Shown here one piece after another: positions 4,843 through 56,421 of a DNA stretch of 64,000 nucleotides. Position 1 is the stretch's first letter. Every line of letters begins with the position of its first letter. Source of the DNA: an uncultured delta proteobacterium (GTDB lineage Bacteria; Desulfobacterota; Desulfuromonadia; Desulfuromonadales; CAWBQR01); the NCBI GenBank assembly GCA_963791005.1, contig CAWBQR010000011.1, positions 41,182 to 105,181 on the forward strand, read 5' to 3'. Below the pieces are notes generated by a model that did no database searches, was not told where the DNA came from, and was given only the letters and a program-made list of their open reading frames with translations. The position numbers and the translations under genes are program-made.

Positions 4843-4847
4843 GGGGT

Positions 4848-4978: not shown

Positions 4979-4989
4979 CAGGGGTGATT

Positions 4990-11575: not shown

Positions 11576-11596
11576 TAAAAAAGGGAGATTTTTGCC

Positions 11597-37571: not shown

Positions 37572-38715
37572 AGGTGCTGCAAATTTTCCCTTCACCCATC
37601 CGGGGTGGTGCTGAAGAACAAGCCCTTACTGTCGGCAAGGGCATCGCCAAGAGGGGGCATGAGGTCCATGCGGCCTTCCCGGTAACCGAGGGCACAGCCA
37701 CCTTGGTGCACGATTACAAGGCCGGGGGCATGTCCTGCCATCACTTGGATATCCCTGCCGGCGAAAAGGGCCTAAAAAACACCCTCCGTCACTGCGCAAC
37801 CACTCTTGCTCTGCTCGAGAGGTTGCACCCCGAGGCGGTGCATCTAGGCCTGCCTTACCCCAACCAGGGGCTAGGCAGCATGTTGGCATGCGCGTTATTT
37901 AAAATACCAACAGTTTGCGTGTTTCATCTTGTGAACGATGAAATTTGTATGGGTGCTGTAAGGCGGAAACTCTATGCCTGGATGCGAAAAAAACACCAGA
38001 AATGGGTCGCAGTTTCCCGAAAATAATCGCAATATCTTGGGCCGCCTTTTCGATATGCCTACAGGAGAGATATGCGTCGTTTACAATGGCCCCTGTATGA
38101 AGTCCCTGCCCACCGCGAAACCCGGGGCTGAGGAGACCGAAGGCCCTACGCAGGGAGTTCGGTGCATCAGATAGTACTAAAGTCATCCTGACTGTTGGAC
38201 GGTTGCACCGTCAGAAGGGCTATCATTTGATAACATCAATCCTTCCCCGAATTGTGAAAAAACATCCAGAAATACTCTTTGTCTGGGTAGGTGAGGGAGA
38301 AGAGCGTAGCAAATTGAAGAGTGCGCTCAAGGTGTGCGGAATGGAATCTCGAGTCAGGATGCTCGGTTATCGTCAAGATATTCCTGCTTTGATGAATGTC
38401 GCAGATCTATTCCTTTTCCCGACTCTCTATGAAGGGTTCTCCATGACTCTTTTAGAGGCAATGGAATCGGGTCTGCCGATAATTACCTCGGACGCCAGCG
38501 GAATTCCAGAGGTCATAGAAGATCGGGTCCATGGGGTCCTTTTTGCTCAAGGGAGTTCAGACGCTTTAGAAAATGCGCTCGAGTGGGCATTCTCTCACGA
38601 AAAGGAAATGGCTGGATTCGCCTGTGCCGCTCAGGAAAGGGTTAATGATTTCTCTGTAGAGAATATGATAGAAACCACACTTGACCTGTTGTTGCAGCAA
38701 GCCGGGCAATCTTGA
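37568..38715 (+). CDS. GT4-family glycosyltransferase (about 2 frameshifts between 38020 and 38200)
   Basis: N-terminus is MKVLQIFPSPIRGGAEE. C-terminus is GRLHRQKGYHL...FPTLYEGFSMTLLEAMESGLPIITSD. Confidence 0.8.
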
Positions 38716-38729
38716 TCCGCAGGCATCCC

Positions 38730-39977: not shown

Positions 39978-40103
39978 TGGGTGCTCAACTGTAGATCATT
40001 GGGGCGTCTCTGTTTTCTTTAATTTAGTATTTAAATCGATTATAGACAAAAGGATGGCAAGGACAACGAGGATTGATCCAACCTTAATTTTAGCAGGTGA
40101 TCA

Positions 40104-41312
40104 TTGAGTTTTGATAAGAGAATCTTCATAGCTACTGATGTAGCGTTTTGGCGTAGAGAGCTTGGATCCGAGGAACGAATCTACCGCCTGGTAAGAGCTA
40201 TAACGGATTCTGGGGCAAGCGTATGCTTGTTTTTTGTGGGAGCCCTCTCTGAGAAAGATAGAGACGAGATAGGTGACCTACCTCTCTTGCACTGGAGGGT
40301 GGTTGATGATGGACGATCATTAACTATAAGTGATTTGGCCTCTCTGCGGGGGCTAAGGTTTTTCTCCAAATGGGTGAGAAAAATTGTCTATCGGGAACTC
40401 TTAGGGGGGGTGCGTCTTCCCTTTTTTCGCTCAGCCAGAGTAGGAAAAGCTTTCAAAGACTTTGTTGATTTTAGTAAACCTCAGGTTTTAGTGGTTGAAT
40501 TTGTTCGGATGACATATCTCCTCGATTGGTGCCCAATTGGGCTATCGATGAAAAAATTTTTGGATACCCATGACCTTATGAGTCAGCGTTATCTCTCCTT
40601 CAAGAGAGCAGGGCTTCGGCATTGGATCAAAATTACAGAGGATGAGGAAGCAGAAGCTTTCTCTCGTTTTGACAGCATCATTGCGATTCAGCCAGAGGAA
40701 AAGGCTAGAATATTAAAAATGATCCCTGGAGGCAATGTCTTTTGCTCGGGATTGGATTCCCCTGTTACGGTTCGAGAGCCTTCTATTCCTTCAGAATTTA
40801 CACTAGGCTTTTTAGGTGGAAACAATCAAGTAAATAGGGAGTCTCTACGATGGTTTCTTGACCGAGTCTGGCCAAAACTTCAAAATATTTTTCCTGAAAT
40901 TAGCTTTTTTGTCGGTGGAGGAGTCTCTGTAGAAGTCAAAGCAACGGATAAATGTGTAAAGCCTCTTGGTTATCTTTCAGATTTAAAGTTATTTTTTTCT
41001 CAAATCAACCTGCTTGTCAATCCTGTTCAGGCCGGCGGGGGCATAAAGGTCAAGAACATTGATGCATTAGCAGGTGGCGTCCCCGTTTTGACCACACCAT
41101 GTGGTGCTGAAGGTTTTCCTGTCCATAAAGGGATAGGTGTTTTGCTCGTGAGTCGGTGCGAAGAAGAATTTTTTGAGGCTATCCTTAATCTTTTTCGAAG
41201 TCCTAGTCAATTATTTGAATTGCAGCAACAAGCAAGTCAGTTTGCCCAGGAATATCTCACTCGGGAAGCAGCCTACGGGGAACTGTTTCGTGCTTGGGGA
41301 TTATGGACCTGA
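40104..41312 (+). CDS. Glycosyltransferase (GT-B fold)
   Basis: TTG start. C-terminal GGGIKVKNIDALAGGVPVLTT. AT-rich gene. Confidence 0.6.
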   Translation: MSFDKRIFIATDVAFWRRELGSEERIYRLVRAITDSGASVCLFFVGALSEKDRDEIGDLPLLHWRVVDDGRSLTISDLASLRGLRFFSKWVRKIVYRELLGGVRLPFFRSARVGKAFKDFVDFSKPQVLVVEFVRMTYLLDWCPIGLSMKKFLDTHDLMSQRYLSFKRAGLRHWIKITEDEEAEAFSRFDSIIAIQPEEKARILKMIPGGNVFCSGLDSPVTVREPSIPSEFTLGFLGGNNQVNRESLRWFLDRVWPKLQNIFPEISFFVGGGVSVEVKATDKCVKPLGYLSDLKLFFSQINLLVNPVQAGGGIKVKNIDALAGGVPVLTTPCGAEGFPVHKGIGVLLVSRCEEEFFEAILNLFRSPSQLFELQQQASQFAQEYLTREAAYGELFRAWGLWT

Positions 41313-41313
41313 A

Positions 41314-42561
41314 ATGACAATTGTTCTCTTCTGTAATAACCATGAGCAATATTTATTTTTTCGCCGCTGTGTTCGGGGGATTGAAAAACTAGATAAACGA
41401 GCTCTCTTTTTGTCTCACCGGTGGTCGGTTGTTTTGCGGGCCAAAATCGATGGATATAATAGCTGCCTTCTTCATGGCTTTAAAAAATCTGGTAATGGCT
41501 CTTTGGGCTCTGATCCCGATATTGCATTTGAGGTGCGCCATGGTCTTCTCTCGCCCGGCCAAGCATGCCGACTGGTCCAGCGAGTTGAGGGCTTTGCTAA
41601 GTCTTTTTTCGTTAAGGAGCGGCCTGATCAAATTTGGTTCTGGGATGGCTGCAACCTGATGCGACAGACCCTTGCTCAAGTCGGCAAGGAATTTGGAGTC
41701 CAGACCCTCTTTTTCCAGTTAGGGAATTTTCCAGGAAAACTTTTTGTGGACACTTTGGGAGTTAATGCCCGTTCCGATTTCACTCACAGACTGAATACCA
41801 TAGATCCATCAGCAAACGTTGACTGGGAATTGTATAGAATATGGAAAGAAAGATATTTAGAAAAGAAGAAAAAAAAACATGTAGTTAAGCAGCGCTCATC
41901 TCTTGTTAAATTTAACTGGCCTTATGCGTTTGACCTTTTCGGATTTTCCTTTCTTGGGGCTCCAGCAAATGAAAAACAGAAGATATTTTTAAAGATTATC
42001 AATTACGCAAAAAGTCGTTTCATAGATTATGATTATGATAATATTAATGGGTTGCAAGATGGCAATTTCTTTCTATTCCCACTCCAGGTTAATTCAGGTA
42101 GTCAAGTCCTTTGGAATAGCAAAATAGGTCAGTTGGAGGCAATAAGAATATGCCATGAAAAAGCAAAAAGCGAGGGAGTGTCTTTGGTAGTTAAGGCGCA
42201 TCCTGTTGAAGATGATATGTGCTTCATTATGGCATTGTTCAGATTGCGTGATGAGCTTAAATTCCGCATAGTCAATAATGATCTTTTTCAGCTGTTGCAA
42301 TGTTGCCGTCGAATTATCACTTTAAATTCTACCGCCGGTCTAGAGGCCATGTTAGTTGGAAAGCCTGTTGAAATCCTGAGCGATGCTCATTATGCAAACT
42401 TCTCCGAAGCTGATCTAGCGTTTTATATTCAACGATTTTTGCTCGATATCGACTTTTTTACGAAAAACGATTTATCTGATGGACAGCTTTTGGAAATTTT
42501 CGAGCGGGCAAATTCAAAATTCTGGCAGCAATTTGAGGCATCCGAGACATTATGTCAGTAA
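41314..42561 (+). CDS. Capsule polysaccharide biosynthesis protein (KpsS/LpsZ-like, Capsule_synth family)
   Basis: Contains FFLFPLQVNSGSQV, VVKAHPVED and ITLNSTAGLEAMLVGKPV. Confidence 0.6.
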   Translation: MTIVLFCNNHEQYLFFRRCVRGIEKLDKRALFLSHRWSVVLRAKIDGYNSCLLHGFKKSGNGSLGSDPDIAFEVRHGLLSPGQACRLVQRVEGFAKSFFVKERPDQIWFWDGCNLMRQTLAQVGKEFGVQTLFFQLGNFPGKLFVDTLGVNARSDFTHRLNTIDPSANVDWELYRIWKERYLEKKKKKHVVKQRSSLVKFNWPYAFDLFGFSFLGAPANEKQKIFLKIINYAKSRFIDYDYDNINGLQDGNFFLFPLQVNSGSQVLWNSKIGQLEAIRICHEKAKSEGVSLVVKAHPVEDDMCFIMALFRLRDELKFRIVNNDLFQLLQCCRRIITLNSTAGLEAMLVGKPVEILSDAHYANFSEADLAFYIQRFLLDIDFFTKNDLSDGQLLEIFERANSKFWQQFEASETLCQ

Positions 42562-43910
42562 CTGCAGTCCTTCTCGCATCAGGTACAGGTCTCCGCTTCG
42601 GCGACAACCAACCCAAGCAGTTCACCAAACTGGCCGGCCTGCCGGTCTTGGTCCACACTCTCAAGTCCTTCGACACCTTTGTCGGTGTCGACAAGGTCAT
42701 CGTCGTAACCAATGAGGAGTATGTGGACCAGGTCTGGGAAATGGTCGGAAAGCATGGTCTGAAAGAGGTAGACAAGGTGGTCGCCGGCGGGGCGAGCCGG
42801 CAGGAGTCCTCCCGGATCGGTCTGGAATGCTGCGACCCGGATACGGAATACGTCCTGATCCATGATGGCGTCCGCCCCTTCATCTCCCAACAGGTCCTGC
42901 AACGGCTCGTGGACGCAGTGAGGGAACACGGGGCGGTCGATACCGTCATTCCTTCCGCCGATACCCTTGTGGTAATCGACGAAAACAATTTCATTCGCAA
43001 CATTCCTGACCGGTCCCACTTCCGGCGCGGCCAGACGCCTCAGGCGTTTTCCTATCCCCTCATCCTCGAGGCGCACCGGCGGGCCGGGGAGAGCGGAATC
43101 GAGAATTCCACCGACGACTGCTCCCTGGTGCTGCGGATGGGCCGTCCCGTCTATGTCGTGGAGGGCGAAGAGCAGAACATCAAAATCACCTATCCCCTCG
43201 ACCTGCACCTGGCCGACAAACTCTTCCAGTTGAACACACAGCCCCCCCTGGCGCTTGCCGGGGCAGGTCTGGAATTTGAGGACAAGGTGGTTGTCATCGT
43301 CGGGGGGACGCAGGGGATCGGCCGATCGATCTCGGCCGTGTTGGAGCGCTGCGGGTCGGCGACCGTGTATGCGCTGGGACGGACCTCGACCCCGGCTGCC
43401 GACGTCACGGACTTCGCCTCACTGGAGGCCGCGATGGGGGATATCTTCCGCCGGGAGGGACGCATCGACTATGTGGTCAATTGCGCCGGCGACCTGATTC
43501 GGAAAAACGTGGCCAACATGACCCTGGACGAGTGGGATTACCTCTATCGGATCAACATGTCCGGCAATTTCTACCTCGCCAAGGCGCTGATGCCGATCTG
43601 GGAGACACAGAAATCAGGCAGCCTGATGCTGGTAGGGTCGAGCAGCTATACCCGGGGGCGGGGAGGGTATGCCGCCTACAGCAGCTCAAAGGCGGCGCTG
43701 GTCAATTTCTGCCAAGCTCTGGCCGAAGAGGTGGACTGCTGGAACGTTAAAGTCAATGTCGCCAGTCCGGGGCGGGTGCAGACGGGCCTGCGGTTTCGCA
43801 ATTTTGGGCAGGAATCCCCTGAGAGCCTGTTGTCTCCCGATTATGTTGCCGAGCAGATCGTTGCGTCCCTGACCATAGATACGACAGGCAGCGTTTTTGA
43901 AATCCGCTGA
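42552..43910 (+). CDS. Bifunctional IspD/TarI-like cytidylyltransferase + SDR reductase (Bcs1-like CDP-ribitol synthase)
   Basis: N-terminus AVLLASGTGLRFG..PKQF (IspD family). C-terminus VVIVGGTQGIGRSI...YAAYSSSKAAL (SDR TGxxxGxG and YxxxK). Confidence 0.75.
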   Translation: MSVTAVLLASGTGLRFGDNQPKQFTKLAGLPVLVHTLKSFDTFVGVDKVIVVTNEEYVDQVWEMVGKHGLKEVDKVVAGGASRQESSRIGLECCDPDTEYVLIHDGVRPFISQQVLQRLVDAVREHGAVDTVIPSADTLVVIDENNFIRNIPDRSHFRRGQTPQAFSYPLILEAHRRAGESGIENSTDDCSLVLRMGRPVYVVEGEEQNIKITYPLDLHLADKLFQLNTQPPLALAGAGLEFEDKVVVIVGGTQGIGRSISAVLERCGSATVYALGRTSTPAADVTDFASLEAAMGDIFRREGRIDYVVNCAGDLIRKNVANMTLDEWDYLYRINMSGNFYLAKALMPIWETQKSGSLMLVGSSSYTRGRGGYAAYSSSKAALVNFCQALAEEVDCWNVKVNVASPGRVQTGLRFRNFGQESPESLLSPDYVAEQIVASLTIDTTGSVFEIR

Positions 43911-43942
43911 ATTCCGTGCGGCTTCTCCCCGAGGGAGTCTGT

Positions 43943-44686
43943 ATGTTTAAAAAACGGCATGAATTCACCCTGCAGCAGGTCAACGAAAGGCTGGTTCTGC
44001 GCTCCTGGTGGGCCTCTTTCGGGGTTCTGCCTCTGGCCAACCGCCTCGTCGTGCTGGTCTGTAACTATACCGAATTAACCCCGAACCAGATCACAGCCGT
44101 CTCCTCTGTCTTCCGTCTGCTCTCCGCTCTCTGCTTCCTGGGGGGGAGCCGCTGGGGGCTGGTTGCCGGCGCCCTCTGCTATTACTTGGCCTATGTCATC
44201 GACTGCGTCGACGGACCGGTCGCCCGCCTCAAGGGAAAGACCTCCGCTTTCGGGCGCTATTTCGACCACCTATCCGACCTTGTCGGCGACATCCTGATTC
44301 TCGCAGCGTTTGCCTGGGGCCAGAGCCTCCTGTTCACGCCCCTGATCCTGGCCATGCTCTTCATGCATATTGCCGAATCCTATATTTCCTATCTGGCCAA
44401 TTTTGCTTTGGATTCCCGCGGCACACTGGAAAACCGGTCCGAAAATCCCCCCGGCTGCGGCCCGCTAAATTGGTTCCGGAAATATCGCCGGTTTTTCTTT
44501 TCACGAAATTTTAAATCATTCTTGTCCTTTCCGGACTACGAAGCCCTGACTCTTCTCTTCTTTCCCTTGATAGGAATGCCTGCATTAGGTCTGAGGGTGG
44601 GGTTTTTTCTGCTCCTTGTGACGACGCTTTACACCGTATTCTCCTCCTTCGTGTCAATTCATACCGGCGAACGCACATTCCCCTGA
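43943..44686 (+). CDS. CDP-alcohol phosphatidyltransferase family membrane protein
   Basis: Contains DCVDGPVARLKGKTSAFGRYFDHLSDLVGD (DGx2ARx8Gx3Dx3D). Confidence 0.8.
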   Translation: MFKKRHEFTLQQVNERLVLRSWWASFGVLPLANRLVVLVCNYTELTPNQITAVSSVFRLLSALCFLGGSRWGLVAGALCYYLAYVIDCVDGPVARLKGKTSAFGRYFDHLSDLVGDILILAAFAWGQSLLFTPLILAMLFMHIAESYISYLANFALDSRGTLENRSENPPGCGPLNWFRKYRRFFFSRNFKSFLSFPDYEALTLLFFPLIGMPALGLRVGFFLLLVTTLYTVFSSFVSIHTGERTFP

Positions 44687-45608: not shown

Positions 45609-45791
45609 TTGAACACCCTGTTCCTGGAGGGGGGTATGAGGGGCAGGCCTGCATGTGCATTCCCAGGGACGTTGTTGACTAGAGTGACTAGCCCTGCTAA
45701 TTTCCTCGAAACCACTTCCGAAAGTCCGGAGTCCCATGATGCCAAGACAAGCAAGACTCGAGGCTCCCGGCACCCTGCATCATATCATCAC

Positions 45792-46846
45792 CTGATTAGC
45801 ACGAATCTTCCGCCGGGCCACAGTATGACATATTGTGACACGGGGAGAGGTTAACCTCATGACATTTCTCCCAAGGAGGCATGCCGTGAAAATGAATCGA
45901 ATCCAGTTCCAGGCCGGGATGAGCCTGAGCCAGTTTCTTGCCGATTATGGCTCCGAGTCCCAATGTGAGGCCATTGTTGAAAAATCCCGCTGGCCTCAAG
46001 GTTTCCAGTGCCCGACGTGCAAAGCGCAGCAGCATACTTCGTATCGGCGTGGTCGCGTGAAAGTCTTTCAATGCCGTGCTTGTCGTACCCAGACAACGTT
46101 GACGGAAGGGACGATTTTTCACTCGACAAAGTTGCCACTGACCAAATGGTTCCAAGCCATGTACTTTCTGAGCCAAACGAAAAATAACGTCTCGATCCTG
46201 GAGCTGCGTCGCCTGGTTGGCCTGAGTTATCAAACCGCATGGAGGATGAAGCACAAGCTCATGCAGGTCATGTATGAGCGGGAAAGCTCCACCCGGCTCT
46301 CAGGTCGTGTCGAAGTAGATGACGCCTACCTCGGTGGCGAGAATCCTGGTGGCAAGGCCGGTCGCGGATCTGAGAACAAGGTCCCGTTTATTGCTGCTGT
46401 TCAGACCAATGACAAGCGCCATCCACTGTACGTCATCTTCTCCAGGGTCAAGGCGTTCAGCAATGCTGAGGTCAAGGCCTGGGCCGATCGCTCACTGGTT
46501 CCGGCAACGACTGTGGTCTCTGATGGCCTTTGGTGCTTCCGGTCGGTCACCCAGGCCGGCTGTATCCAGCAACGCGAAGTTGTCGGTCCGGGCCGAAAGA
46601 GTACGGACATGGAATGCTTTTCCTGGGTCAATACCATTCTGGGCAACCTGAAGAATGCCATTAACGGCACGTACCATGCCTTCGACTTTGAGAAATATGC
46701 ACACCGTTATCTCGGTGAGTTTCAATATCGTTTCAACCGCCGCTTCGATCTCGCCAATTTGCTCCCTCGAATGATCGTCGCTGCGGTCAATACAGGCAAA
46801 CGCTCCGAACGCTGGCTCCGCTTAGCGGAAGATCAGTGCTAATCAG
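45792..46846 (+). mobile_element. IS1595-family insertion sequence (ISXO2-like), apparently intact
   Basis: 19-bp terminal IRs CTGATTAGCACGAATCTTC / GAAGATCAGTGCTAATCAG (17/19 match). Flanked by the direct repeat ATATCATCA (45782-45790 and 46847-46855). Confidence 0.85.
45892..46842 (+). CDS. IS1595-family DDE transposase with N-terminal Zn ribbon
   Basis: Contains RWPQGFQCPTCKAQQH...FQCRACRTQ and VEVDDAYLGGE (ISXO2-like DDE domain). Confidence 0.85.
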   Translation: MNRIQFQAGMSLSQFLADYGSESQCEAIVEKSRWPQGFQCPTCKAQQHTSYRRGRVKVFQCRACRTQTTLTEGTIFHSTKLPLTKWFQAMYFLSQTKNNVSILELRRLVGLSYQTAWRMKHKLMQVMYERESSTRLSGRVEVDDAYLGGENPGGKAGRGSENKVPFIAAVQTNDKRHPLYVIFSRVKAFSNAEVKAWADRSLVPATTVVSDGLWCFRSVTQAGCIQQREVVGPGRKSTDMECFSWVNTILGNLKNAINGTYHAFDFEKYAHRYLGEFQYRFNRRFDLANLLPRMIVAAVNTGKRSERWLRLAEDQC

Positions 46847-47227
46847 ATATCATCATCAGGGGAATCGAAAAGCGCCGCATTTTGTCTGACGCTGGCGGAA
46901 TCCGCGAGATGGCTCGGCGTTTCCTCCTCGGCGATATCCAGGATTTTGAGCCGAGGGGAGAAAAGCTGGTCAAGGTAGTCAACAACGTCCCCCCCCATTC
47001 GGATGGCTACCGAGCCGGGGGGAGAAGCGGTTCAATCGGCTCCTCGTCGTCCAAGAGATCCAAAAGGATTGGAGAGCGATAGCCAGCAGATCGTTTTGCG
47101 CCTTGATGAAGGATGGTCTCGCAAAAGGTCGATATTTCTTAAGTTGCTGAAAAAACAGATAAAAACGAAATTTCTCGCTTTGGCCTGCTGGACATTTGTG
47201 GTGAGATAACTGAGCAATTTCAATCTG

Positions 47228-48415
47228 TTATATGGAGTTTACCCCTTCCTCCCAGATGGTCATCATCCGCTTTCCAACCTCTTTGAAATCCGGATGATCA
47301 GCAATGTAGCGGGGGATTCTCTGCCGAGTTTCCATCACGGCATCGGCCACCTGGGAGATGGTCTCGTGAATCTCCCCGATCGGCAGCGAAAGGTGCGCAA
47401 TGGCAAACCGCTCAAGCACTTTGCGAGACCACCATTTCTTCGTGCCGTCAATAGTCAAGGCCGGAACGTCCTTAGGGATGTAAGCCGTTGTCGTAACCAC
47501 GTCGAATACGGGCGCGATCGATACCGGCTCGCTGCAGGAGGGATAAAGAACTCCGAAGTTCTTCAGGTGGGCATCGCCATTTCGGACCATGGAGGAAAGG
47601 ATCAAGGTAGCGAAGAACTGGCGCCGGGCCGCCGGCAGATTTTCCCCTGAGATGAAGTTTTTCAGAGTCTTGGCGACCCGTTCGTAAGTGCCGCTGTATT
47701 TTTTGGCAGTTCCCAAGGCCTGTAGGCTGCACATATCCTCAAAGCCAAGGGAAAGCCCCTCTGGGGTTCTGTCAAACCGTCGCATCACAAAGAGCCCGCC
47801 GTTCCCAGACAAATGGAACTCCGGGACCGCCAGCCCCGCAGCCTTAGCCGCGGTCATGCAAAAGAATTCGTTGGCGGCCAGTTGCGGGTACTCGGTTCCC
47901 CAGCTCTTGACGATATAGCCCCTTGCGGTTGAGGTTCCCCGCTGCGCCGCATCGAGCAGAACCTTGGGCTGGACACCAGAGATGCCGGAGCGCAGTGCGT
48001 AGCGGCCAATCAAATCGTGGAAAAGCTCCGTCGTGTTCGGATAGGTCAGCAATTCCTCAAGAGACTCAGTCCTGCGGCCGTCCCCCGGGTACCCCTCACC
48101 CGGCAAGGAGAAGCCGTTCCGCCCGATCTGGTTGCCCCCGGTGGCCTGGAGGATGGAGATGTCATCTTCGCCGACGATTTTCGCAATAGCGTTCCGGATG
48201 GCCTCAAGGAGTGCCCCTTCAGGAATGTTCATCTGGAAAACCGGATGAAGCTCCGGCGTGACCCATCCTTCCAGCCGAACCGGCATGGTGAGAGACACCG
48301 CCTCAACAGACTCGCTATCATAGCCAAAGACGAACTTGCGTTGAGCCTCCCGCAACAGACGACCGGCCATCGAGCGACTGACCCAGACATCCAACGCTTT
48401 CACACCGGCCATCAA
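47228..48415 (-). CDS. hipA: HipA-family serine/threonine kinase toxin
   Basis: 395 aa. Contains ISGVQPKVLL, RFDR and NGDAHLKNFGVLY. Confidence 0.85.
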   Translation of the reverse strand: MMAGVKALDVWVSRSMAGRLLREAQRKFVFGYDSESVEAVSLTMPVRLEGWVTPELHPVFQMNIPEGALLEAIRNAIAKIVGEDDISILQATGGNQIGRNGFSLPGEGYPGDGRRTESLEELLTYPNTTELFHDLIGRYALRSGISGVQPKVLLDAAQRGTSTARGYIVKSWGTEYPQLAANEFFCMTAAKAAGLAVPEFHLSGNGGLFVMRRFDRTPEGLSLGFEDMCSLQALGTAKKYSGTYERVAKTLKNFISGENLPAARRQFFATLILSSMVRNGDAHLKNFGVLYPSCSEPVSIAPVFDVVTTTAYIPKDVPALTIDGTKKWWSRKVLERFAIAHLSLPIGEIHETISQVADAVMETRQRIPRYIADHPDFKEVGKRMMTIWEEGVNSI

Positions 48416-48654
48416 TCGGACTCCTGTTGAAGCTCATCAAGCGTCGGAGGAGATCCAGCCGGCCGAACCTTGAGCTCTAAGCCGAGGACCTCGAGAATCC
48501 GCAGGACCTTTCGGAAGCCGATATCTTGGACCGTCCCATTCTCTATCTGGCTGATCGTTGCTCGGCTCATTCCCAGAAGGTCAGCCAACTGCCCTTGAGT
48601 CAGTTTGCGGCGCTTTCGCTCAGTGCGGATATTTTGTCCGATTTCGTATAGCAT
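48412..48654 (-). CDS. hipB: HipB-like XRE-family HTH antitoxin
   Basis: Contains LTQGQLADLLGMSRATISQIENG. Overlaps the hipA start by 4 nt. Confidence 0.8.
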   Translation of the reverse strand: MLYEIGQNIRTERKRRKLTQGQLADLLGMSRATISQIENGTVQDIGFRKVLRILEVLGLELKVRPAGSPPTLDELQQESD

Positions 48655-48750
48655 GAATGCATTGTATGTAATACATAGCGCACTGTCAACACCACTTTGC
48701 ATTATATTCAATGCATTTTATTCACATCTAGGAAATCGAGTGAGGTATGA

Positions 48751-49240
48751 GGGTCAGGCCTGAAAGATTGCAAGTTGTCCAAGTGATGCTATCTTTATCT
48801 CATGGCACGTAAACCACGTATCCATTATCCTGGCGCGGTGTACCACGTCGTCCTTCGGGGGAATGCTCGGCAGGACATCCTTTTCGACGATGAGGACCGT
48901 TGTCGATTTTATCTCCTGCTCCAAGAAGGAATTGAGCGCTACGGCCACCGGATTCTTGCTTTTTCCCTGTGCCAAGGACGTACAATCTGCGGGCTGAGGA
49001 ACTAAACGCTTCCAGTCAGAAACGACTGCCATCGGAGGCCCGGGGGCTGGCTGCCTGGGCCGTTCGAGAATTGACGGATGCGACGTTGAACGATCTGGCT
49101 GAAAAATTCGGGCGAGACGCCTCAACCTTGAGCGCGGCGATCAGTCGATTTGAGGTGCGTCAAAAAGACGATCCGACCCTCACCGGGAAGGTTGAACGGT
49201 TGAAGAAGGAGCTAAAGGTTACAGCCATTCAGGCCTGACC
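48751..49240 (+). mobile_element. Y1-transposase/DnaA-C element, copy a (internal deletion; both termini retained)
   Basis: Same termini GGTCAGGCCTGAA / TTCAGGCCTGACC as copy b. The deletion junction near 48965 lies at TGACAA-like microhomology. Confidence 0.8.
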
Positions 49241-49255
49241 CTTTTTCTGACTTTC

Positions 49256-49536
49256 ATGTGGCGGTCGCCCTCGGCAAGCCCACGGTCTCCCTGTTCGGTC
49301 CGGCCATCGCCGCCAAGTGGGCGCCCCGAGGCGAGGAGCACATCGTCCTCAACAAGAATCTATCCTGCTCCCCCTGCACCCGCTTCGGGAAAACGCCCCC
49401 GTGCCCCAGCAATGCCCTCTGCCTTTCGGAGATCACCGTAGAAGAGGTAACTGCTGCGGTGGAACGGCTTTTTCGGAATTCGAGCCGTCCCGGGGATGAA
49501 AGCTTGTCGAACGGCCGCCAACCCTCTACAATGTGA
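49256..49536 (+). pseudogene. 3' fragment of a GT9 (heptosyltransferase-like) gene
   Basis: Roughly 88% nucleotide identity by eye with 55126-55320 of the intact GT9 gene. Encodes ...PTVSLFGPAIAAKWAPRGEEH...CSPCTRFGKTPPCP... Confidence 0.8.
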
Positions 49537-49662
49537 ACAAAAGTTCGGAGTTTGGCCACCTGTCGTTAAGATAGGGAAAGAGTTTAGGGAGGTTGTGTCG
49601 GCCAGGCCCAGCTCTTGAGTCCCGGCCGCATTGCCGCCATCCGATTTGGAGGGAAGATCCTC

Positions 49663-50061
49663 ATGATAAACAGGCACCTCGACTGGCTCCGCCAGGCAGA
49701 AAACGATCTGGAATGGGCAAGTCACTCCTTGGCCGGGGGATTCTGTGCCCAGACGTGTTTCGTCGCCCAGCAGGCCAGCGAAAAGGCTCTCAAGGCCTTT
49801 TGCTTTGCCAAGGGGTTCGATATTATCCGGACTCACTCCCTGTTTCAGATCGTCAAAAATCTGGGAGAGAACGGCACGCTTGAAAAACATGCCCGGGAAC
49901 TCGACCTCTATTACATAACAGCGCGTTATCCTGATGCCTTTCCTGCCGGAGCCCCCTTTGAGATAATCTCTGCCGAGCAGGCGGAGCGCGCTCTTCAGGG
50001 AGCCCGGGAAATCGTGACCATCATCAAGGATCGTCTGACAGATGCCGAACAAGATTCTTGA
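49663..50061 (+). CDS. HEPN-domain protein (toxin component of HEPN/MNT pair 3)
   Basis: Contains DLEWASHSL...QQASEKALKAF...IRTHSL. 132 aa. Confidence 0.75.
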   Translation: MINRHLDWLRQAENDLEWASHSLAGGFCAQTCFVAQQASEKALKAFCFAKGFDIIRTHSLFQIVKNLGENGTLEKHARELDLYYITARYPDAFPAGAPFEIISAEQAERALQGAREIVTIIKDRLTDAEQDS

Positions 50062-50395
50062 CCGGAGCCGTCCGCGAAGGAGTCTCCTGGACCTTTCTCC
50101 GGCTGAAGTCCAGTCATTTTTCCGTGAAAAACTCGCCAATAGAGGGGTTTCGGAGGCCTATCTTTTCGGGTCCTTCACCCGAGGGACCTGCAATCCATGG
50201 TCTGACGTGGACATAGTCGTGGTCAAGCCCACCGAGCAGCCCTTTGTCGAACGCCCTCGTGAGTTTTCAGACCTTTACGACCTCGGCGTCCCTGTCGATA
50301 TCCTGGTGTACACTCCCCGGGAATTCCAGGAGATTCGGACTTCAGCCTCCGGTTTCTGGAAGGAGTTCGACAGACACAATGTTCGGATTCTTTGA
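50042..50395 (+). CDS. MNT-type nucleotidyltransferase (pair 3)
   Basis: Contains LFGSFTRGTCNPWSDVDIVVV. Overlaps the HEPN gene by 20 nt. Confidence 0.8.
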   Translation: MPNKILDRSRPRRSLLDLSPAEVQSFFREKLANRGVSEAYLFGSFTRGTCNPWSDVDIVVVKPTEQPFVERPREFSDLYDLGVPVDILVYTPREFQEIRTSASGFWKEFDRHNVRIL

Positions 50396-50441
50396 GAATG
50401 CCGTCTGGAATATTTTGTCTCAAGGGAATTGAAGTAGGAGG

Positions 50442-51449
50442 GTCAGGCCTGAAAGGGTGCAAGTTGTCCAAATGATGCTATCCTTATCCCATGGCACGTA
50501 AACCACGTATCCATTATCCTGGCGCGGTGTACCACGTCATCCTTCGGGGGAATGCTCGTCAGGACATCTTTTTCGACGATGAGGACCGTTGTCGATTTTA
50601 TCTCCTGCTCCAAGAAGGAATTGAGCGCTACGGCCACCGAGCTCTCGCCTTTTCCCTGCTGACAAACCATGTCCATCTCGCAATTCAGGTGGGGTCCATC
50701 CCCCTGTCGCGCATCATGCAGAATCTTTCGTTCCGCTATACGCGCTTGGTAAACAGGAGGCAGGGCAGGAGCGGTCACCTTTTCCAGGGAAGATACCAGG
50801 CCGTTCTCGTGGATGCCGACACGTACTTGCTTGAACTTGCGGCGTACATCCATCTCAATCCAGTACGCGCCGGCATGGCCGACAGGCCGGAGCTCTATCC
50901 GTGGAGCAGCCATCGCGCCTACCTCGGGCATGAGACGATCCCATGGTTGAGCCCGGATTGTGTGCTGACCCACTTCTCTACGAATTTGGAACAAGCCCGT
51001 CGACTGTTTGGCGAATTCGTCGCCGAAAGAATCGAGGAGGGGCGCCGGGAGGAATTTTACGGGAAGGGGAGTCTCGATGGCCGCCTCATCGGCGAGGACC
51101 GGTTCGTGGAGAGAGTCCTTCGGGAGGCGAATTCCCTGCCGGTGCGCAGACCTTCTATCGAAGCGGTGCTGGAGATCGTGACAAGGATGTACAATCTGCG
51201 GGAAGAGGAACTAAGCGCTTCTGGTCAGAAACGACTGCCATCGGAGGCCCGGGGGCTGGCTGCCTGGGCCGTTCGAGAATTGACGGATGCGACGTTGAAC
51301 GATCTGGCTGAAAAATTCGGGCGAGACGCCTCAACCTTGAGCGCCGCGATCAGTCGTTTTGAGGTGCGTCAAAAAGACGATCCGAGCCTCACCGGGAAGG
51401 TTGAACGGTTGAAGAAGGAGCTAAAGGTTACAGCCATTCAGGCCTGACC
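50442..51449 (+). mobile_element. Y1-transposase/DnaA-C element, copy b (full length, 1008 bp)
   Basis: 15-bp termini GGGTCAGGCCTGAAA (inverted), each containing the perfect palindrome TCAGGCCTGA. Confidence 0.8.
50491..51447 (+). CDS. Y1/HUH (IS200-like, RAYT-like) transposase fused to a DnaA-domain-IV-like HTH
   Basis: Contains YHVILRGN, HUH motif TNHVHLAI and GHLFQGRYQAVLVD. The C-terminus ARGLAAWAVRELTDATLNDLAEKFGRDASTLSAAISR resembles Bac_DnaA_C. Confidence 0.8.
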   Translation: MARKPRIHYPGAVYHVILRGNARQDIFFDDEDRCRFYLLLQEGIERYGHRALAFSLLTNHVHLAIQVGSIPLSRIMQNLSFRYTRLVNRRQGRSGHLFQGRYQAVLVDADTYLLELAAYIHLNPVRAGMADRPELYPWSSHRAYLGHETIPWLSPDCVLTHFSTNLEQARRLFGEFVAERIEEGRREEFYGKGSLDGRLIGEDRFVERVLREANSLPVRRPSIEAVLEIVTRMYNLREEELSASGQKRLPSEARGLAAWAVRELTDATLNDLAEKFGRDASTLSAAISRFEVRQKDDPSLTGKVERLKKELKVTAIQA

Positions 51450-51641
51450 CTTTTTCTTTCTTTGTCAAGATCGAGATAAACGACGATATTTTCGACGTTG
51501 TCGAATTCAAGCAGGTAGGGAGAGTTCTATGCATGGGGGCTTTTCAGGAAGTCGGGCGACCCCTCTCTTGTGCTTGCATCGGGGTTCTTTCCCGTGTTAC
51601 ACACCAAGGGACCACTGCCTCCCCAAGCCGGAGATAATGAG

Positions 51642-52061
51642 ATGAAACTCGATATTTCTCCCTTTGAAAAAGCGCTTTCCCAGTTGGAAAAAAGTTTGGG
51701 ATTCCTCCATTCCGAGCTGGCACGCCAGGATGCCGACCTACGGGAGCAGTTCCGTGCGGCGACCATTCAGGCCTTCGAGTACAGTTACGAACTCGGTATC
51801 AAGATGCTTCGCCGGCAATTGGAGCAGATCGCGGCCAATCCGGCGGAAATTCGGGAAATGGTTTTTATGGACATGATCCGCACTGGAGCCGAGGCCGGAT
51901 TGGTGCGGCAGGTTCCTTCATATCGACTTTTTCGGGAGATGAGGAACATGACCCGCCATACGTATGACGAGGCCAGAGCGGAGGAGGTTTTGTCGGCTAT
52001 GGAGGATTTCGTCCGCGAGATGCATTTCCTTCGAGATGAATTGAAGCGCCGCAATGAGTGA
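51642..52061 (+). CDS. HI0074-family nucleotidyltransferase substrate-binding (HEPN-like) protein (pair 4)
   Basis: Contains FEKALSQLEKSL...AFEYSYELGIKMLRR...MRNMTRHTYDE. Confidence 0.75.
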   Translation: MKLDISPFEKALSQLEKSLGFLHSELARQDADLREQFRAATIQAFEYSYELGIKMLRRQLEQIAANPAEIREMVFMDMIRTGAEAGLVRQVPSYRLFREMRNMTRHTYDEARAEEVLSAMEDFVREMHFLRDELKRRNE

Positions 52062-52371
52062 TCTGAAGATTGAACCGGAGGAACTGGAAACGGTCCGGGG
52101 GATTCTTCGTGCTCACGTGCCGGGGTTGGAGGTGTGGGCCTTTGGATCGCGGGTTCACGGAGAAAATCTCAAACCGTACTCAGATCTCGACCTGGCGATT
52201 ATCAACGAGACCCCCCTGGATGCCGAAAAACTGGCCGAGTTGAGAGAGGCTTTCTCCGAATCGGCTCTCCCGTTCAAGGTTGATTTTCTCGATTGGTCAG
52301 TCACCAATGAGCGGTTCAAGCGGCTGATCAGGCAGGATTATCGGATCGTGCAGAAAGAAAAAGGAGGCTGA
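52054..52371 (+). CDS. HI0073-family nucleotidyltransferase (MNT; pair 4)
   Basis: Contains WAFGSRVHGENLKPYSDLDLAI. Overlaps the upstream gene by 8 nt. Confidence 0.8.
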   Translation: MSDLKIEPEELETVRGILRAHVPGLEVWAFGSRVHGENLKPYSDLDLAIINETPLDAEKLAELREAFSESALPFKVDFLDWSVTNERFKRLIRQDYRIVQKEKGG

Positions 52372-52417
52372 GAGGAGATGCTCGAAATGCCTGCCGAAGG
52401 TCAAGCGAAGAATCGAA

Positions 52418-53088
52418 GGGTCGGGCCTGAAAGATTGCAAGTTGTCCGAATGATGCTATCTCCAGTACGCGCCGGCATGGCCGACAGGCCGGAGCTCTAT
52501 CCATGGAGCAGCCATCGTGCCTACCTCGGCCATGAGACGATCCCATGGTTGAGCCCGGATTGTGTGCTGACCCACTTCTCTACGAATTTGGAACAAGCCC
52601 GCCGACTGTTTGGCGAATTCGTCGCCGAAAGAATCGAGGAGGGGCGCCGGGAGGAATTTTACGGGAAGGGGAGTCTCGATGGCCGCCTCATCGGCGAGGA
52701 CCGGTTCGTGGAGAGAGTCCTTCGGGAGGCGAATTCCCTGCCGGTGCGCAGACCTTCTATCGAAGCGGTGCTGGAGATCGTGACAAGGATGTACAATCTG
52801 CGGGAAGAGGAACTAAGCGCTTCCGGTCAGAAACGACTGCCATCGGAGGCCCGGGGGCTGGCTGCCTGGGCCGTTCGAGAATTGACGGATGCGACGTTGA
52901 ACGATCTGGCTGAAAAATTCGGGCGAGACGCCTCAACCTTGAGCGCGGCGATCAGTCGTTTTGAGGTGCGCCAAAAAGACGATCCGAGCCTCACCGGGAA
53001 GGTTGAACGGTTGAAGAAGGAGCTAAAGGTTACAGCCATTCAGGCCTGACCCTTTTTCCTTAAAGGTTACAGCCATTCAGGCCTGACC
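52418..53088 (+). mobile_element. Y1-transposase/DnaA-C element, copy c (5' terminus kept, about 370 bp deleted, 3' end tandemly duplicated)
   Basis: The 5' 45 bp are joined directly to the codon for P124 (PVRAGMADRPELYPW...). The 37-bp 3' terminus is present twice (53025-53059 and 53062-53096). Confidence 0.8.
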
Positions 53089-53217
53089 CTTTTTCCATTG
53101 GATAGCACCTTTCAGACGGCGGAAACGGAAAAGACTTGTCTTTCTGATTTTCTTGACAATGGATTGTCGTTCAACTAATGTTGACTAAGTCTAGCTAAAT
53201 CAAAAGAGGGGTGGATC

Positions 53218-53451
53218 ATGCAAGTCAATATGCACGAGGCCAAAAGTAAACTGTCTGCTCTTGCGGAAAAGGTCTGGCAAGGGGAAACAGTCGTCATTGC
53301 CAAGGCGGGAAAGCCATATCTCGACATCCTGCCGCACAAGGAAGAGCGCATCCCACGCAAGCCGGGTCGTTTTAAAGGCCGTATTCGTATGGCCGGGGAT
53401 TTTGATCGGACGCCCGAGGAGATTGTCGATGCCTTTGAGGGGAAAAGCTGA
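53218..53451 (+). CDS. Phd/YefM-type antitoxin
   Basis: Contains MQVNMHEAKSKLSALAEKVWQGETVVIAKAGKP. 77 aa. Stop overlaps the vapC start. Confidence 0.8.
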   Translation: MQVNMHEAKSKLSALAEKVWQGETVVIAKAGKPYLDILPHKEERIPRKPGRFKGRIRMAGDFDRTPEEIVDAFEGKS

Positions 53452-53837
53452 TGCAGCGATTCCTGCTCGATACCCATACCCTGCTCTGGTGGCTCGGAGA
53501 CGACCCCCAGCTCGGGTCCCGCTGCCGGGACGTCCTTGCCGATCGCCGCAACGAGGTTTTCGTCAGCGCCGCAACGACCTGGGAAATTTCCATTAAAATG
53601 GCCCTCGGTAAACTGGAGGCGCCGGAGGATATGGACTCCATCGTCGAGGATGAGGGATTCAGCAAGCTCCCGATTTCCCTCTATCACGGCCAGTTGGCCG
53701 GAACCCTGCCGTCACTACATCGAGACCCCTTCGATCGCATGTTGATCGCCCAGGCCCAGGCCGAAGGACTGATTCTCGTTACCGCAGACAAGGACATCGC
53801 ACAATACCAGCTCCGCCTCCGGAATCCCCTGGAATAG
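53451..53837 (+). CDS. vapC: PIN-domain toxin VapC
   Basis: Contains FLLDTHTLLWW...SAATTWEISIK...DPFDRMLIAQA...VTADKD. Confidence 0.85.
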   Translation: MQRFLLDTHTLLWWLGDDPQLGSRCRDVLADRRNEVFVSAATTWEISIKMALGKLEAPEDMDSIVEDEGFSKLPISLYHGQLAGTLPSLHRDPFDRMLIAQAQAEGLILVTADKDIAQYQLRLRNPLE

Positions 53838-53858: not shown

Positions 53859-53945
53859 AAAAGGATGCAGTTCTGGGAATCTTCGGCCAACTCCCGGCCG
53901 CGGGTTTACTATTTGCAATTGTAGAGGATTGCTTTTATTGTCGGG

Positions 53946-54198
53946 AAAGATATCCGCTGGATACAGCGATTGGCCAACTATGAATCTGCCCTGTCTCAGT
54001 TGCTCAGAGCCGTCGAACTGGCCGTTGACTGAATTGGAAAAGCAAGGGCTGATCCATGCCTTCGCGTTTACTCACGAACTGGCCTGGAACGTGATGAGAG
54101 ACTACTTTCTCTATCTGGGAATTACCTCAATTACCGGCTCGCGCGATGCCGTTCGGGAATCTTTCCGTCAGGGGCTTGTCGAGGACGGTGAGGGCTGA
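53946..54198 (+). pseudogene. Fragment of an HI0074-family (HEPN-like) gene, frameshifted and C-terminally truncated, with no MNT partner
   Basis: KDIRWIQRLANYESALSQL in one frame, then LTELEKQGLIHAFAFTHELAWNVMRDY...GSRDAVRESFRQGLVEDGE. Confidence 0.65.
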
Positions 54199-54272: not shown

Positions 54273-55364
54273 ATGAACACTTTGTTCCTGAAAAAAATAG
54301 ACAGCCTGGCAGGCTCGATGCTTGCCCGCCTGCTGCCGCGGCCGGCGCAACCGGGGACCGCCTCCCTGGCCGTCTCCCGCCTGCTGCTTATTCGCCCCGG
54401 CGGCATCGGCGACGCCGTACTGCTGGCGCCGGCCATCCGGCAACTCCGCCGGACCTATCCGGAGGCGATTATTCACGTTCTCGCCGAGAGCCGCAACGCG
54501 GCAGTTTTCGGCCTTTGTCCGGAGGTGGATGACGTTTTCCGCTACGACCGGCCCAAGGAGTTGCTGGCGGCCCGTGGCGGCCGTTATGATGCCATCATCG
54601 ACACGGAACAGTGGCACCACCTCTCAGCGATAATAGCCCGGTTCATCCGCTCATCCGTGAAAATCGGGTTTGCGACCAATGGGCGGAAAAAACTCTTCAA
54701 CCATCCCGTGCCCTATGCTCATGAGACTTACGAAGTCGACAGCTTCTTCCATCTGCTGCGGCCCCTTGGCATCGCTCCCTCGGAGGCGAAAGAAATTCCC
54801 TTTCTTCAGGTGACACCTTCTGCCAGCAAAAGGGCAGGGGAGCTGCTGAGAGAGATTTTCGGCAGACCCTTTGCCGCCCTGTTTCCCGGCGCCAGCATCC
54901 CGGAGCGACGATGGGGGGCGGAGAAGTTCCGGGCGGTGGCCGCCGCCCTTTCCGAGAAGGGGATTCCGTCCGTCATTGTAGGCGGGAAGGAAGATGTCGG
55001 CGATGGCGCAGCGATTGCCGAAGGCGGGAAGATTTTGAACCTGGCGGGCCGGACCTCCCTCATCGAGACGACGGCGGTGCTTGAGAAATGCGCCGTACTG
55101 GTAAGCGGGGACTCCGGCATCCTTCATGTCGCGGTCGGCCTCGGCAGGCCGACGGTCTCCCTGTTCGGTCCGGGCATCGCCGCCAAGTGGGCTCCCCGTG
55201 GCCAGGAGCACATCCCCCTCAATAAGAAACTTCCCTGCTCCCCCTGCACCCGCTTCGGAAATACGCCCCCGTGTCCGAGCAATGCCCTCTGCCTTTCGGA
55301 GATTACCGTGGAGGAAGTGCTGAGGGCTGTAAGTAGCCTCTTTTCAAGGTTGAATATTTCATGA
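54273..55364 (+). CDS. Glycosyltransferase family 9 (heptosyltransferase-like)
   Basis: 363 aa. Contains LLIRPGGIGDAVLLAPAIRQLR and SGDSGILHVAVGLGRPTVSLFGP. Confidence 0.85.
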   Translation: MNTLFLKKIDSLAGSMLARLLPRPAQPGTASLAVSRLLLIRPGGIGDAVLLAPAIRQLRRTYPEAIIHVLAESRNAAVFGLCPEVDDVFRYDRPKELLAARGGRYDAIIDTEQWHHLSAIIARFIRSSVKIGFATNGRKKLFNHPVPYAHETYEVDSFFHLLRPLGIAPSEAKEIPFLQVTPSASKRAGELLREIFGRPFAALFPGASIPERRWGAEKFRAVAAALSEKGIPSVIVGGKEDVGDGAAIAEGGKILNLAGRTSLIETTAVLEKCAVLVSGDSGILHVAVGLGRPTVSLFGPGIAAKWAPRGQEHIPLNKKLPCSPCTRFGNTPPCPSNALCLSEITVEEVLRAVSSLFSRLNIS

Positions 55365-56131
55365 ATATTTTGATCCTTCTTTTTTTTTCCTTTCTTCTTG
55401 GCGCAGTTATCGGCTCTTTCCTCAACGTGTGCATCTACCGGATCCCTGCGGGGGAGTCCATCGTCTCTCCCGGGTCCCGGTGCCCCCACTGCGGAACGCC
55501 AATCCTCTGGTACCAGAATATACCGATTTTCAGTTGGCTGGTGCTCGGCGGAAAGTGTGCTTCCTGTAAGGGCTCCATTTCCATTCGGTATCCGATGGTG
55601 GAGGCGCTGACGGGGGGGCTTTTCGCTCTGGTTTTTTACCGCTTCGGCATTCAATGGGCCACGCCGATTTACTGGCTCTTCTGCGCCGCCCTGGTCGCCA
55701 TCACCTTCATCGACCTCGACCATCAGATCATCCCCGACGTCATCAGCCTCCCCGGCATACCGATCGGTTTTCTCTGCTCCTTCGCCCTCCCGTGGATCTC
55801 CTGGACCGATTCCCTCTTCGGCATTCTTCTCGGAGGGGGGAGTCTCTTTGCCGTTGCGGCGGGGTATGAATTGCTGACCAAGAAGGAAGGCATGGGCGGG
55901 GGCGACATCAAGCTGTTGGGCATGATGGGGGCTTTTCTGGGCTGGCAGGCGGTGCTGCCCGTCATTTTTCTCAGCTCCCTCATCGGTTCCCTGGTCGGGG
56001 TTCCACTGATGCTCATCAAGAAGGCCGACGGCAAACTCGCCATTCCCTTCGGTCCCTTTCTCGCTCTGGGGGCGCTCATCTACCTCTTTTGGGGGCCGGA
56101 GCTGATCCGGTGGTATCTGTCGCTTTTCTGA
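55361..56131 (+). CDS. pilD: Prepilin peptidase / N-methyltransferase PilD (A24 family)
   Basis: Contains GSFLNVCIYRIP...CPHCG...CASC and two Asp-box regions (FIDLDHQIIPD; GGGDIKLLGMMG). Confidence 0.9.
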   Translation: MNILILLFFSFLLGAVIGSFLNVCIYRIPAGESIVSPGSRCPHCGTPILWYQNIPIFSWLVLGGKCASCKGSISIRYPMVEALTGGLFALVFYRFGIQWATPIYWLFCAALVAITFIDLDHQIIPDVISLPGIPIGFLCSFALPWISWTDSLFGILLGGGSLFAVAAGYELLTKKEGMGGGDIKLLGMMGAFLGWQAVLPVIFLSSLIGSLVGVPLMLIKKADGKLAIPFGPFLALGALIYLFWGPELIRWYLSLF

Positions 56132-56138: not shown

Positions 56139-56292
56139 ATGCTTTCGCAAGAAAGCAAAATAGTGGATGGCTAAGCAAAAAGCGCCAAATGCAAGGCGCG
56201 CAATTGTCGAGCAATGAGGCGTACTCAGGTACGTCGAAGCAGCGAGAGCAATTGCAGCAACGCTGCAGCTGGTGAGTTTTTGCGACGCCATC
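56139..56292 (-). repeat. MITE-like repeat, copy B (inverted relative to copy A)
   Basis: The reverse complement aligns end to end with 11423-11575. Confidence 0.8.
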
Positions 56293-56421
56293 AATCGTTT
56301 TCTCCCCGCCGAATACCATATCTTGCGCTTTTCTTTCTCGCTTTCACAACATATGGTGACAAAAATTGTCTTTCTTTGTCAGTACAATGGCTTAGGGAGG
56401 TTTTGACTCCCTATTAATTGC

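Follow-up and report, generated by a model that had tools for sequence, protein, structure and literature searches.

Near-identical TIRtron copies interleaved with predicted toxin–antitoxin modules in a pilus-linked island of an uncultured delta proteobacterium

TIRtrons, mobile-element-like units in which the gene of a TIRYT transposase lies between terminal inverted repeats with the tip motif GGGGWSAS, were described by Di Nocera (2013; PMC3733652). TIRYTs were later equated with TnpA_REP subclass 2.1, whose 2.1.2 branch has a Bac_DnaA_C domain, and with Group 1 of the REP-associated tyrosine transposases (RAYTs; REP, repetitive extragenic palindrome) (Quentin 2018; PMC6006769), a class delineated by Bertels (2017; PMC5581495). 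Group 1 is the RAYT group with the most members and the widest spread, and neither function nor biochemistry is reported for it in the literature searched. In the published picture, copy number is low, the copies within one genome are little alike, and autonomous mobility is not in evidence, while Group 1 shows the top rate of duplicates among true RAYTs, 6.3% (PMC3733652, PMC6006769, PMC5581495). Here, we analyze a 64,000-nt stretch of an uncultured, Geobacter-like delta proteobacterium of the Desulfuromonadales (contig CAWBQR010000011.1, positions 41,182 to 105,181; hereafter the window), in which three copies of a TIRtron, one of them intact, alternate with predicted toxin–antitoxin (TA) modules in a small island beside pilus genes.

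The closest solved structure belongs to the Escherichia coli REPtron, which consists of rayT (yafM) and flanking bacterial interspersed mosaic elements (Ton-Hoang 2012; PMC3333891; 4ER8). Its TnpA_REP has 165 aa, carries no helix-turn-helix (HTH), and acts on GTAG-tagged REP hairpins that are dispersed in hundreds, whereas the window element has no hairpin REPs and its tips are confined to the island within the 64 kb. In E. coli, rayT is located between dinJ-yafQ and dinB-yafNO, and in 24 strains the TA pair hicAB takes the place of the REPtron. Thus, TA modules and RAYT loci trade places at a single site, which provides a partial precedent for a link between the two. The original prediction, made from the DNA letters alone, took such a link to be a probably undescribed property of Y1/RAYT-like elements. 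This is only partly so, as the element class is described and the E. coli precedent exists, but the link of TIRYTs to TA modules is indeed undescribed in the open-access literature searched.

IS200/IS605 elements (IS608, ISDra2) share the Y1 HUH fold, the lack of a target-site duplication, and the bias toward one orientation, but differ by subterminal hairpins and by the absence of terminal inverted repeats and of a DnaA-type domain. With its terminal inverted repeats and a score of 16.3 bits against the IS200 model NF033573 (cutoff 55), the window element was rejected as a member of this family. Vibrio superintegrons resemble the locus in their short, promoter-proximal cassettes between repeats and in interspersed TA cassettes. 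In contrast, the window has no IntI, attI, or attC, its repeats are transposon copies of 0.5–1 kb instead of 60–130-bp sites, and there are only three cassettes; an integron was rejected, with no integrase among the island open reading frames (ORFs) and the element copies as the only inter-cassette repeats. Composite or pseudo-compound transposons and IS91/ISCR likewise bracket cargo by direct copies, and ISCR and IS91 are HUH enzymes. However, no bracketed unit was found to have moved here, and TIRYT belongs to the RAYT/IS200 branch, not to the rolling-circle enzymes.

The class assignment follows from the protein and the ends of the element. The 318-aa product of the intact copy, copy b, matches Pfam Y1_Tnp (2.8e-13) and Bac_DnaA_C (3.6e-11), and so carries both domains that had been proposed for it. 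Its HUH motif N59-H60-V-H62 and the motif Y119-IHL-N123-P124 are invariant in 30 homologs (as N59-H60-x-H62 and Y119-x3-N123-P124), and a DnaA domain IV-like HTH at about residues 220–312 yields phmmer matches to DnaA chains at 5e-5. The AlphaFold model (pLDDT 79) is matched best by E. coli TnpA_REP 4ER8 (TMt 0.76) and next by the IS608 and ISDra2 transposases, and its C-terminal domain matches DnaA domain IV at a TMt of 0.89–0.91 (1J1V, 0.91). The best NCBIfam match, REP-associated tyrosine transposase (REP_Tyr_transpos), reaches 66.9 bits and stays below its cutoff of 80. A REPtron, or RAYT in the strict sense, was rejected on this score and on the tips, which lie only inside the island and in most relatives are non-palindromic. 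The tip as a REP was likewise discarded, since the 64 kb contain no dispersed tip copies beyond the island. In the window, the tips read (A)GGGTCAGG and agree with GGGGWSAS at seven of eight positions, and those of many relatives read GGGGTCAGG and agree at all eight. A RAYT-like Y1 HUH core with Y---NP, a C-terminal Bac_DnaA_C HTH, a length of ~318 aa, and terminal inverted repeats with a fitting tip in place of REP hairpins are the marks of this class. By its sequence, the element thus qualifies as a TIRtron with a TIRYT gene, that is, a member of an already described but little-studied class and not a new kind of element.

Compared to published TIRtrons, the window is distinguished by copies that are 94–99% identical within 4.3 kb, by deletion derivatives that keep both tips, and by the interleaved TA cassettes; tips in dimers or clusters, as found here, have occasionally been published. 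The three copies a, b, and c share one orientation (Table 1), and, in line with the original prediction, b is intact and a and c are internally deleted. Copy b measures 1011 bp from tip to tip instead of the predicted 1008 bp, with coordinates off by 2. The claim that shared parts are more than 95% identical was slightly generous because the measured identities range from 94% (a and b, left part) over 96–97% (a against b and c, right part) to 98.8% (b and c). At 96–99% identity, the window copies are recent. An independent metagenome contig (L001) is 99.7% identical over 13.7 kb and has the same layout.

The termini are shared as predicted, but they are not identical 15-bp inverted repeats. 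The left end of copy c reads GGGTCGGG and has one mismatch to the other termini (14/15), and the inverted repeat of copy b runs to ~31 nt with 81% complementarity (50432–50462 and 51428–51458). The palindrome TCAGGCCTGA occurs six times in the window, always at copy termini, against an expectation of 0.13. When up to two mismatches to GGGTCAGGCCTG are allowed, the copy c left end and a remnant at 45640 are added within the island, and the other matches in the window are at chance level. This remnant is a duplicate of the left junction of copy a; therefore, an IS1595-family insertion sequence (IS) and hipBA lie between two left-tip junctions. In copy b, the stop codon is placed inside the right tip (CAG GCC TGA CCC), which thus encodes the last two residues of the protein (Q-A) together with the stop. 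In copy a, 519 bp (50659–51177 of b) are missing, with a TGACAA microhomology at the junction. Copy c lacks 375 bp (50484–50858 of b), a deletion that removes the catalytic (HUH) domain and leaves a 223-aa ORF (52378–53049) with the DnaA_C domain. Separately, a solitary CAAGCTTGACCC at 27243–27254, 3' of an ORF downstream of the pilin gene, looks like the family-consensus right tip and is at chance level.

The same pilus-linked site carries an array with other cassettes in a sister lineage. Locus L161 (a JGI contig) reads GT9-HI0074/MNT-pilD-pilM-pilN, with three direct TIRYT copies (1 to 3) upstream of GT9, of which the first retains an intact ORF, the second is 5'-truncated with a duplicated right end, and the third is decayed. 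Its cassettes are, in order, Schlafen/AlbA_2-HATPase, an inverted MNT/HEPN plus Phd/ParE, and DUF433 plus DUF6364/PIN. Locus L091 is 95% identical to L161 and has the same copy-MNT/HEPN-Phd-copy segment, and in L099 the orthologous methyltransferase gene is followed directly by a full left end. The TA genes had been expected to be a coincidence if a sister genome held them in the same order without the repeats; instead, L161 and L091 keep the repeats and differ in the TA cassettes. A clean insertion of L161 copy 1 into an IS21 istA was considered and rejected, since the remaining istA is absent after the right end, and the junction is therefore unusable as an insertion footprint.

Copies in L161, L091, and L099 are ~90% identical to those of the window, whereas GT9, pilD, pilM, and the methyltransferase are only 64–72% identical between the lineages. 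Because of this difference, the element must have been exchanged more recently than the hosts split, and sequence comparison thus indicates that it moved between lineages, with the same site occupied in each. Within a lineage, the copies are 96–99% (window) and 86–90% (L161) identical to each other; because they group by lineage, each array was built or homogenised inside its own lineage. The cassettes of the window and L161 are non-homologous except for HI0074, which is found on opposite sides of GT9, as a gene between GT9 and pilD in L161 and as a fragment before GT9 in the window. Among 170+ other loci, no close homolog of the window TA proteins lies beside a copy, and no cassette was found in two contexts. 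Exact look-ups of GT9 and the methyltransferase for strain variants returned the same arrangement or nothing. A third array was detected in a Desulfuromonadales metagenome-assembled genome (L003, 3096–15305), where three TIRYT copies are interleaved with Rhs toxin/immunity cassettes, namely two full Rhs genes plus an orphan C-terminal Rhs toxin, which is accompanied by a small zinc-ribbon protein as putative immunity factor; a distant TIRYT paralog (31% identical) follows 8 kb beyond the array. Arrays interleaved with toxin modules thus recur in three lineages (window, L161/L091, and L003).

With modest confidence, we favor a composite explanation in which 45.6–54.2 kb is a small variable island and a hot spot for two kinds of selfish module, TIRtrons and type II TA pairs. 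New copies would be placed at or next to resident tips, either through HUH-type insertion, which makes no target-site duplication, or through local duplication, resulting in same-orientation clusters, and the TA pairs would be independent passengers that reach the same permissive site. Through the direct repeats of 0.5–1 kb, which would act as portable homology, the intervening DNA could then be deleted, duplicated, or exchanged by RecA-type recombination. The GT9 fragment, which at 49253–49448 is 89% identical to the resident GT9 (55123–55318) and 78% identical to that of L161, and the displaced HI0074 fragment may represent scars of such events. TA cassettes in chromosomal integrons and islands are thought to protect arrays from recombinational loss. 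By analogy, a TA pair in each interval might penalise deletion through post-segregational toxicity, and we propose that arrays with addictive modules persist because deletion between copies would remove an antitoxin or immunity gene. The alternation would then mainly be a survivorship pattern and not the outcome of active cassette capture.

The TIRYT gene is constrained. Between copy b and L161 copy 1, dN/dS (the ratio of nonsynonymous to synonymous substitution rates) is 0.13 at a dS of 0.34, and the intact gene is under purifying selection. Between b and c (50859–51444 and 52378–53049), all seven substitutions in 585 coding nt are synonymous (dN 0, dS 0.05). Either selection still acts on the DnaA_C-only ORF of copy c, which might bind the tips as a regulator, or the deletion happened very recently. 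Both patterns would suit a domesticated, immobile system in which TIRYT and DnaA_C-only derivatives bind the tips and control TA or pilus genes, as would the homolog of Geobacter sulfurreducens, which is single-copy at a fixed locus in all strains examined, and the general view of RAYTs as domesticated. We consider such a role highly improbable in view of the several near-identical and decayed copies in the window, the identities of ~90% for copies against ~70% for flanks between lineages, and a gene neighborhood that is not conserved across species. Moreover, the tips are not placed at TA promoters; one is found ~50 nt before the ATG of the element itself, and the other overlaps its stop codon.

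The behavior of the family was followed in a sample of 80 species-representative loci, among which the source genome itself is not included. In about 70 homologous loci from Desulfuromonadales, Zeta-, Gamma-, and Betaproteobacteria, and Nitrospirales (five bacterial classes), the gene is enclosed by inverted repeats of 13–44 nt that start with GGGTCAGGC(T/C)TG, one ~50 nt ahead of the ATG and the other spanning the stop codon. No two of the 80 loci have two or more flank homologs in common, and no neighborhood is conserved: the TIRYT gene changes its genomic context between species. A search of 72,556 plasmids returned only nine distant matches (32–44% identity), for which reason a plasmid-borne IS was rejected. 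Target-site duplications were not detected, with repeats of at least 5 nt in four loci against 3.0 expected from shuffled pairs, and both flanks share the consensus AATGG/GGTCAGGC. Tips are often tandemly reiterated at either end, with three left tips in each of L012, L022, and L055 and duplicated right ends in L161 (4083, 4117) and at window copy c; apart from such tandem tips, extra tip matches in other loci are near chance. Short contigs were inspected for circular or tandem signatures and have no terminal overlaps; the reading of 1-kb contigs as a sign of repeat collapse was therefore dropped.

A second TIRYT copy, fragment, or paralog occurs within 10 kb in 14 of the 80 loci, in ten cases in the same and in four in the opposite orientation. 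By our own estimate, which assumes one to two genes per multi-megabase genome on the basis of 1.3–1.8 RAYT Group 1 copies per replicon (Bertels 2017; PMC5581495), well under 1% would be expected by chance. Some of these co-located paralogs are merely 27–41% identical, yet share the same GGGGTCA tip, and therefore tandem duplication cannot explain them. This bears on a plainer account, in which copies stem from tandem duplication or unequal crossing-over followed by decay, TA pairs and ISs tolerate the same non-essential spot, and any TA enrichment mirrors the general abundance of mobile DNA in islands. The IS1595 element and the GT9 and HI0074 fragments in the same island agree with it, as do IS21, IS256-type, and DDE transposases around homologs elsewhere and the mostly ordinary neighbors of TIRYT genes. 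Further, the TA comparison given below covers TIRYT genes as the only mobile family. We nevertheless regard this account as the less probable one, because the divergent paralogs co-locate with one tip motif, the same site is occupied by copies ~90% identical between flanks of only ~70%, and toxin-interleaved arrays recur in three lineages.

An association with TA genes extends beyond the window. Pfam assigned the 150 ORFs nearest to TIRYT genes to 155 families, mainly of ordinary metabolism and regulation. Of 147 small ORFs located up to ~1.5 kb from a TIRYT gene, at least 13 match TA families (MazE 3; BrnT, PIN, and CopG 2 each; PemK, MazE-like, RES, and HigB 1 each), as against no TA family among the matches listed for about 150 control small ORFs at distances above 5 kb (Fisher p=8e-5, resting on the best 25 families listed). 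TA-like pairs, defined by geometry alone as two same-strand ORFs of 55–170 aa spaced by −30 to +40 nt, show the same trend: the 233 kb close to the elements contain 25 of them, and 398 kb of distant sequence contain 12 (Poisson P ~1e-7). The TA association is real but partial, comprising roughly a tenth to a quarter of the loci, and the expectation that copies preferentially neighbor TA genes holds across species. In five other genera, a TA module begins ~0–270 nt after the right tip (MazEF in L010, BrnTA in L019, Phd/YoeB in L027, VapBC in L038, and MNT in L039); additionally, RelE/HTH is found upstream of the element in L068 and VapBC between two paralogs in L046.

The position of these five modules could be taken to mean that TIRYT mobilises adjacent DNA, which would make the TA pairs genuine cargo and the array a product of the enzyme. 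Capture could proceed as a composite element that combines the left end of one copy with the right end of a second copy, or by read-through of the right end as in IS91, ISCR, and Helitrons. Tandem right-end duplications in the window and L161 conform to this scheme, together with 5'-truncated copies that keep the right end and abut full copies (L003 10971–11609; L161 3282–4094), the GT9 3' fragment that abuts the right end of copy a, and the absent target-site duplication, which HUH enzymes predict. However, a left end follows every window cassette and no right-end/cargo/right-end unit is present; none of the cassettes is found with a copy in another context; and copies a and c were shortened by ordinary microhomology deletion. 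In the same loci, there are also TA pairs that have no copy beside them, namely MNT/HepT at 34093–34924 of the window and HI0074/MNT between GT9 and pilD in L161. Moreover, read-through is established for rolling-circle HUH transposases and not for the IS200/RAYT branch closest to TIRYT. We therefore judge capture by the enzyme to be unlikely. Still less probable is a variant in which the GGGTCAGGC tips themselves act as HUH joining sites, with TA and Rhs toxin-immunity units recruited, exchanged, and duplicated between a right tip and the next left tip. If true, the locus would be an integron-like cassette platform with a Y1 nuclease instead of a tyrosine recombinase, which would account for tandem tips, for divergent paralogs that lie together, and for TA pairs that begin just past right tips.

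The composite explanation of a hot spot for TIRtrons and TA pairs has to be weighed against several observations that count against it. Most TIRYT loci have ordinary neighbors and no TA genes, and the homolog of G. sulfurreducens is a single copy at a fixed locus. The TA comparison sets TIRYT-near regions solely against those more than 5 kb away; its ORF calls are crude, and the control zero is a lower bound, as the best 25 Pfam families were listed. Transposition is not demonstrated because neither an empty site, nor a circular junction, nor a precise excision footprint was found, and no TIRYT is reported active in the literature searched. Recombination between copies was not seen directly in any instance, and the stabilising role of the TA pairs is drawn from TA modules of integrons and islands. 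Likewise, nothing shows that the repeats drive gain or loss of cassettes, as the original prediction had considered possible, given that no cassette appears in two contexts.

Beyond the class itself, the following features are undescribed in the same literature: a single locus that combines near-identical TIRYT copies with natural mini-derivatives, arrays that occupy the same site in separate lineages but differ in their toxin cassettes, and the clustering of TIRYTs across species, divergent paralogs included, with their TA enrichment. The locus offers an intact, selected gene, two natural mini-elements with intact tips, and a second lineage with other cargo. If the TA link holds in complete genomes, a class of HUH elements would join the organisers of toxin–antitoxin and polymorphic-toxin islands and provide a concrete case for the question whether interspersed TA pairs stabilise direct-repeat arrays. 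If it fails, the locus would be a TA-rich island in which an ordinary IS cluster is decaying.

Table 1. Positions of the TIRtron copies, their remnants, and the surrounding island features in the window
Feature	Position	Strand	Remarks
TIRtron copy a	48751-49241	+	Both tips intact; non-autonomous derivative
TIRtron copy b	50440-51450	+	Intact; TIRYT ORF 50491-51447, 318 aa
TIRtron copy c	52418-53052	+	Left tip with 1 mismatch; HUH domain deleted
Duplicated right end of copy c	53024-53096	+	Tandem 37-bp duplication; second unit 53061-53096
Left-end tip remnant and flank, GAGGGGGGTATGAGGGGCAGGCCTG	45627-45651	+	Directly 3' of methyltransferase gene
IS1595-family IS	45666-46991	+	27-nt inverted repeats; transposase ORF 45835-46842; NF033547, 206 bits
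hipBA, predicted TA module	47228-48711	-	hipA 47228-48415; hipB 48412-48711
Orphan GT9 heptosyltransferase 3' fragment	49253-49536	+	Abuts copy a right end
HEPN/MNT, predicted TA module	49663-50395	+	HEPN 49663-50061; MNT nucleotidyltransferase 50042-50395
HI0074/MNT, predicted TA module	51642-52371	+	HI0074-type NTase-substrate-binding protein 51642-52061; MNT 52054-52371
Phd/VapC, predicted TA module	53218-53837	+	Phd-type antitoxin 53218-53451; PIN VapC toxin 53451-53837
Orphan HI0074 fragment	53929-54198	+	76% aa identical to L161 HI0074 (L161 10087-10260)
GT9 glycosyltransferase	54273-55364	+	Right island border
Prepilin peptidase pilD	55361-56131	+	Right island border

The genes of the island and its surroundings agree with the layout originally read from the DNA. 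Pfam recovers the pairs HipA/HTH, HEPN/NTP_transf_2, NTase_sub_bind/NTP_transf_2, and Phd/PIN with overlaps of 1–20 nt, which we predict to be type II and HEPN-MNT TA modules. They are located as proposed, with hipBA before a, HEPN/MNT between a and b, HI0074/MNT between b and c, and Phd/VapC plus the orphan HI0074 after c. Four of the five TA pairs of the window lie inside the 8.6-kb island (45.6–54.2 kb); the fifth, an MNT nucleotidyltransferase with a HepT RNase, belongs to a low-GC glycan cluster and has no TIRYT tip nearby. The gene order is pilB, pilC, a 77-aa pilin gene, the glycan cluster, the methyltransferase gene, the island, and GT9-pilD-pilMNOPQ, and the block is indeed wedged between the pilus-linked glycan cluster and GT9-pilD.

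An Rfam scan of the window returned no family, and GC skew gave no information on the direction of replication. At 38000–44000, the glycan cluster has a GC content of 44–48% as compared to ~55–60% elsewhere. Its genes for a TarI/TarJ-like cytidylyltransferase-reductase fusion and for a CDP-alcohol phosphatidyltransferase suggest that a polyol-phosphate glycan pathway beside the short pilin gene was acquired horizontally. Finally, an intergenic repeat of ~150 nt, which resembles a miniature inverted-repeat transposable element and has no match in Rfam, carries the inverted ends GATGGCGTCGCAAAAAG ... GAGTTTTTGCGACGCCATC. It is present at 56143–56296 (+), 11423–11576 (−), and 4847–4981 (+) of the window and at 10753–10905 and 12369–12446 of L161, and is thus scattered in the pilus cluster of both lineages.

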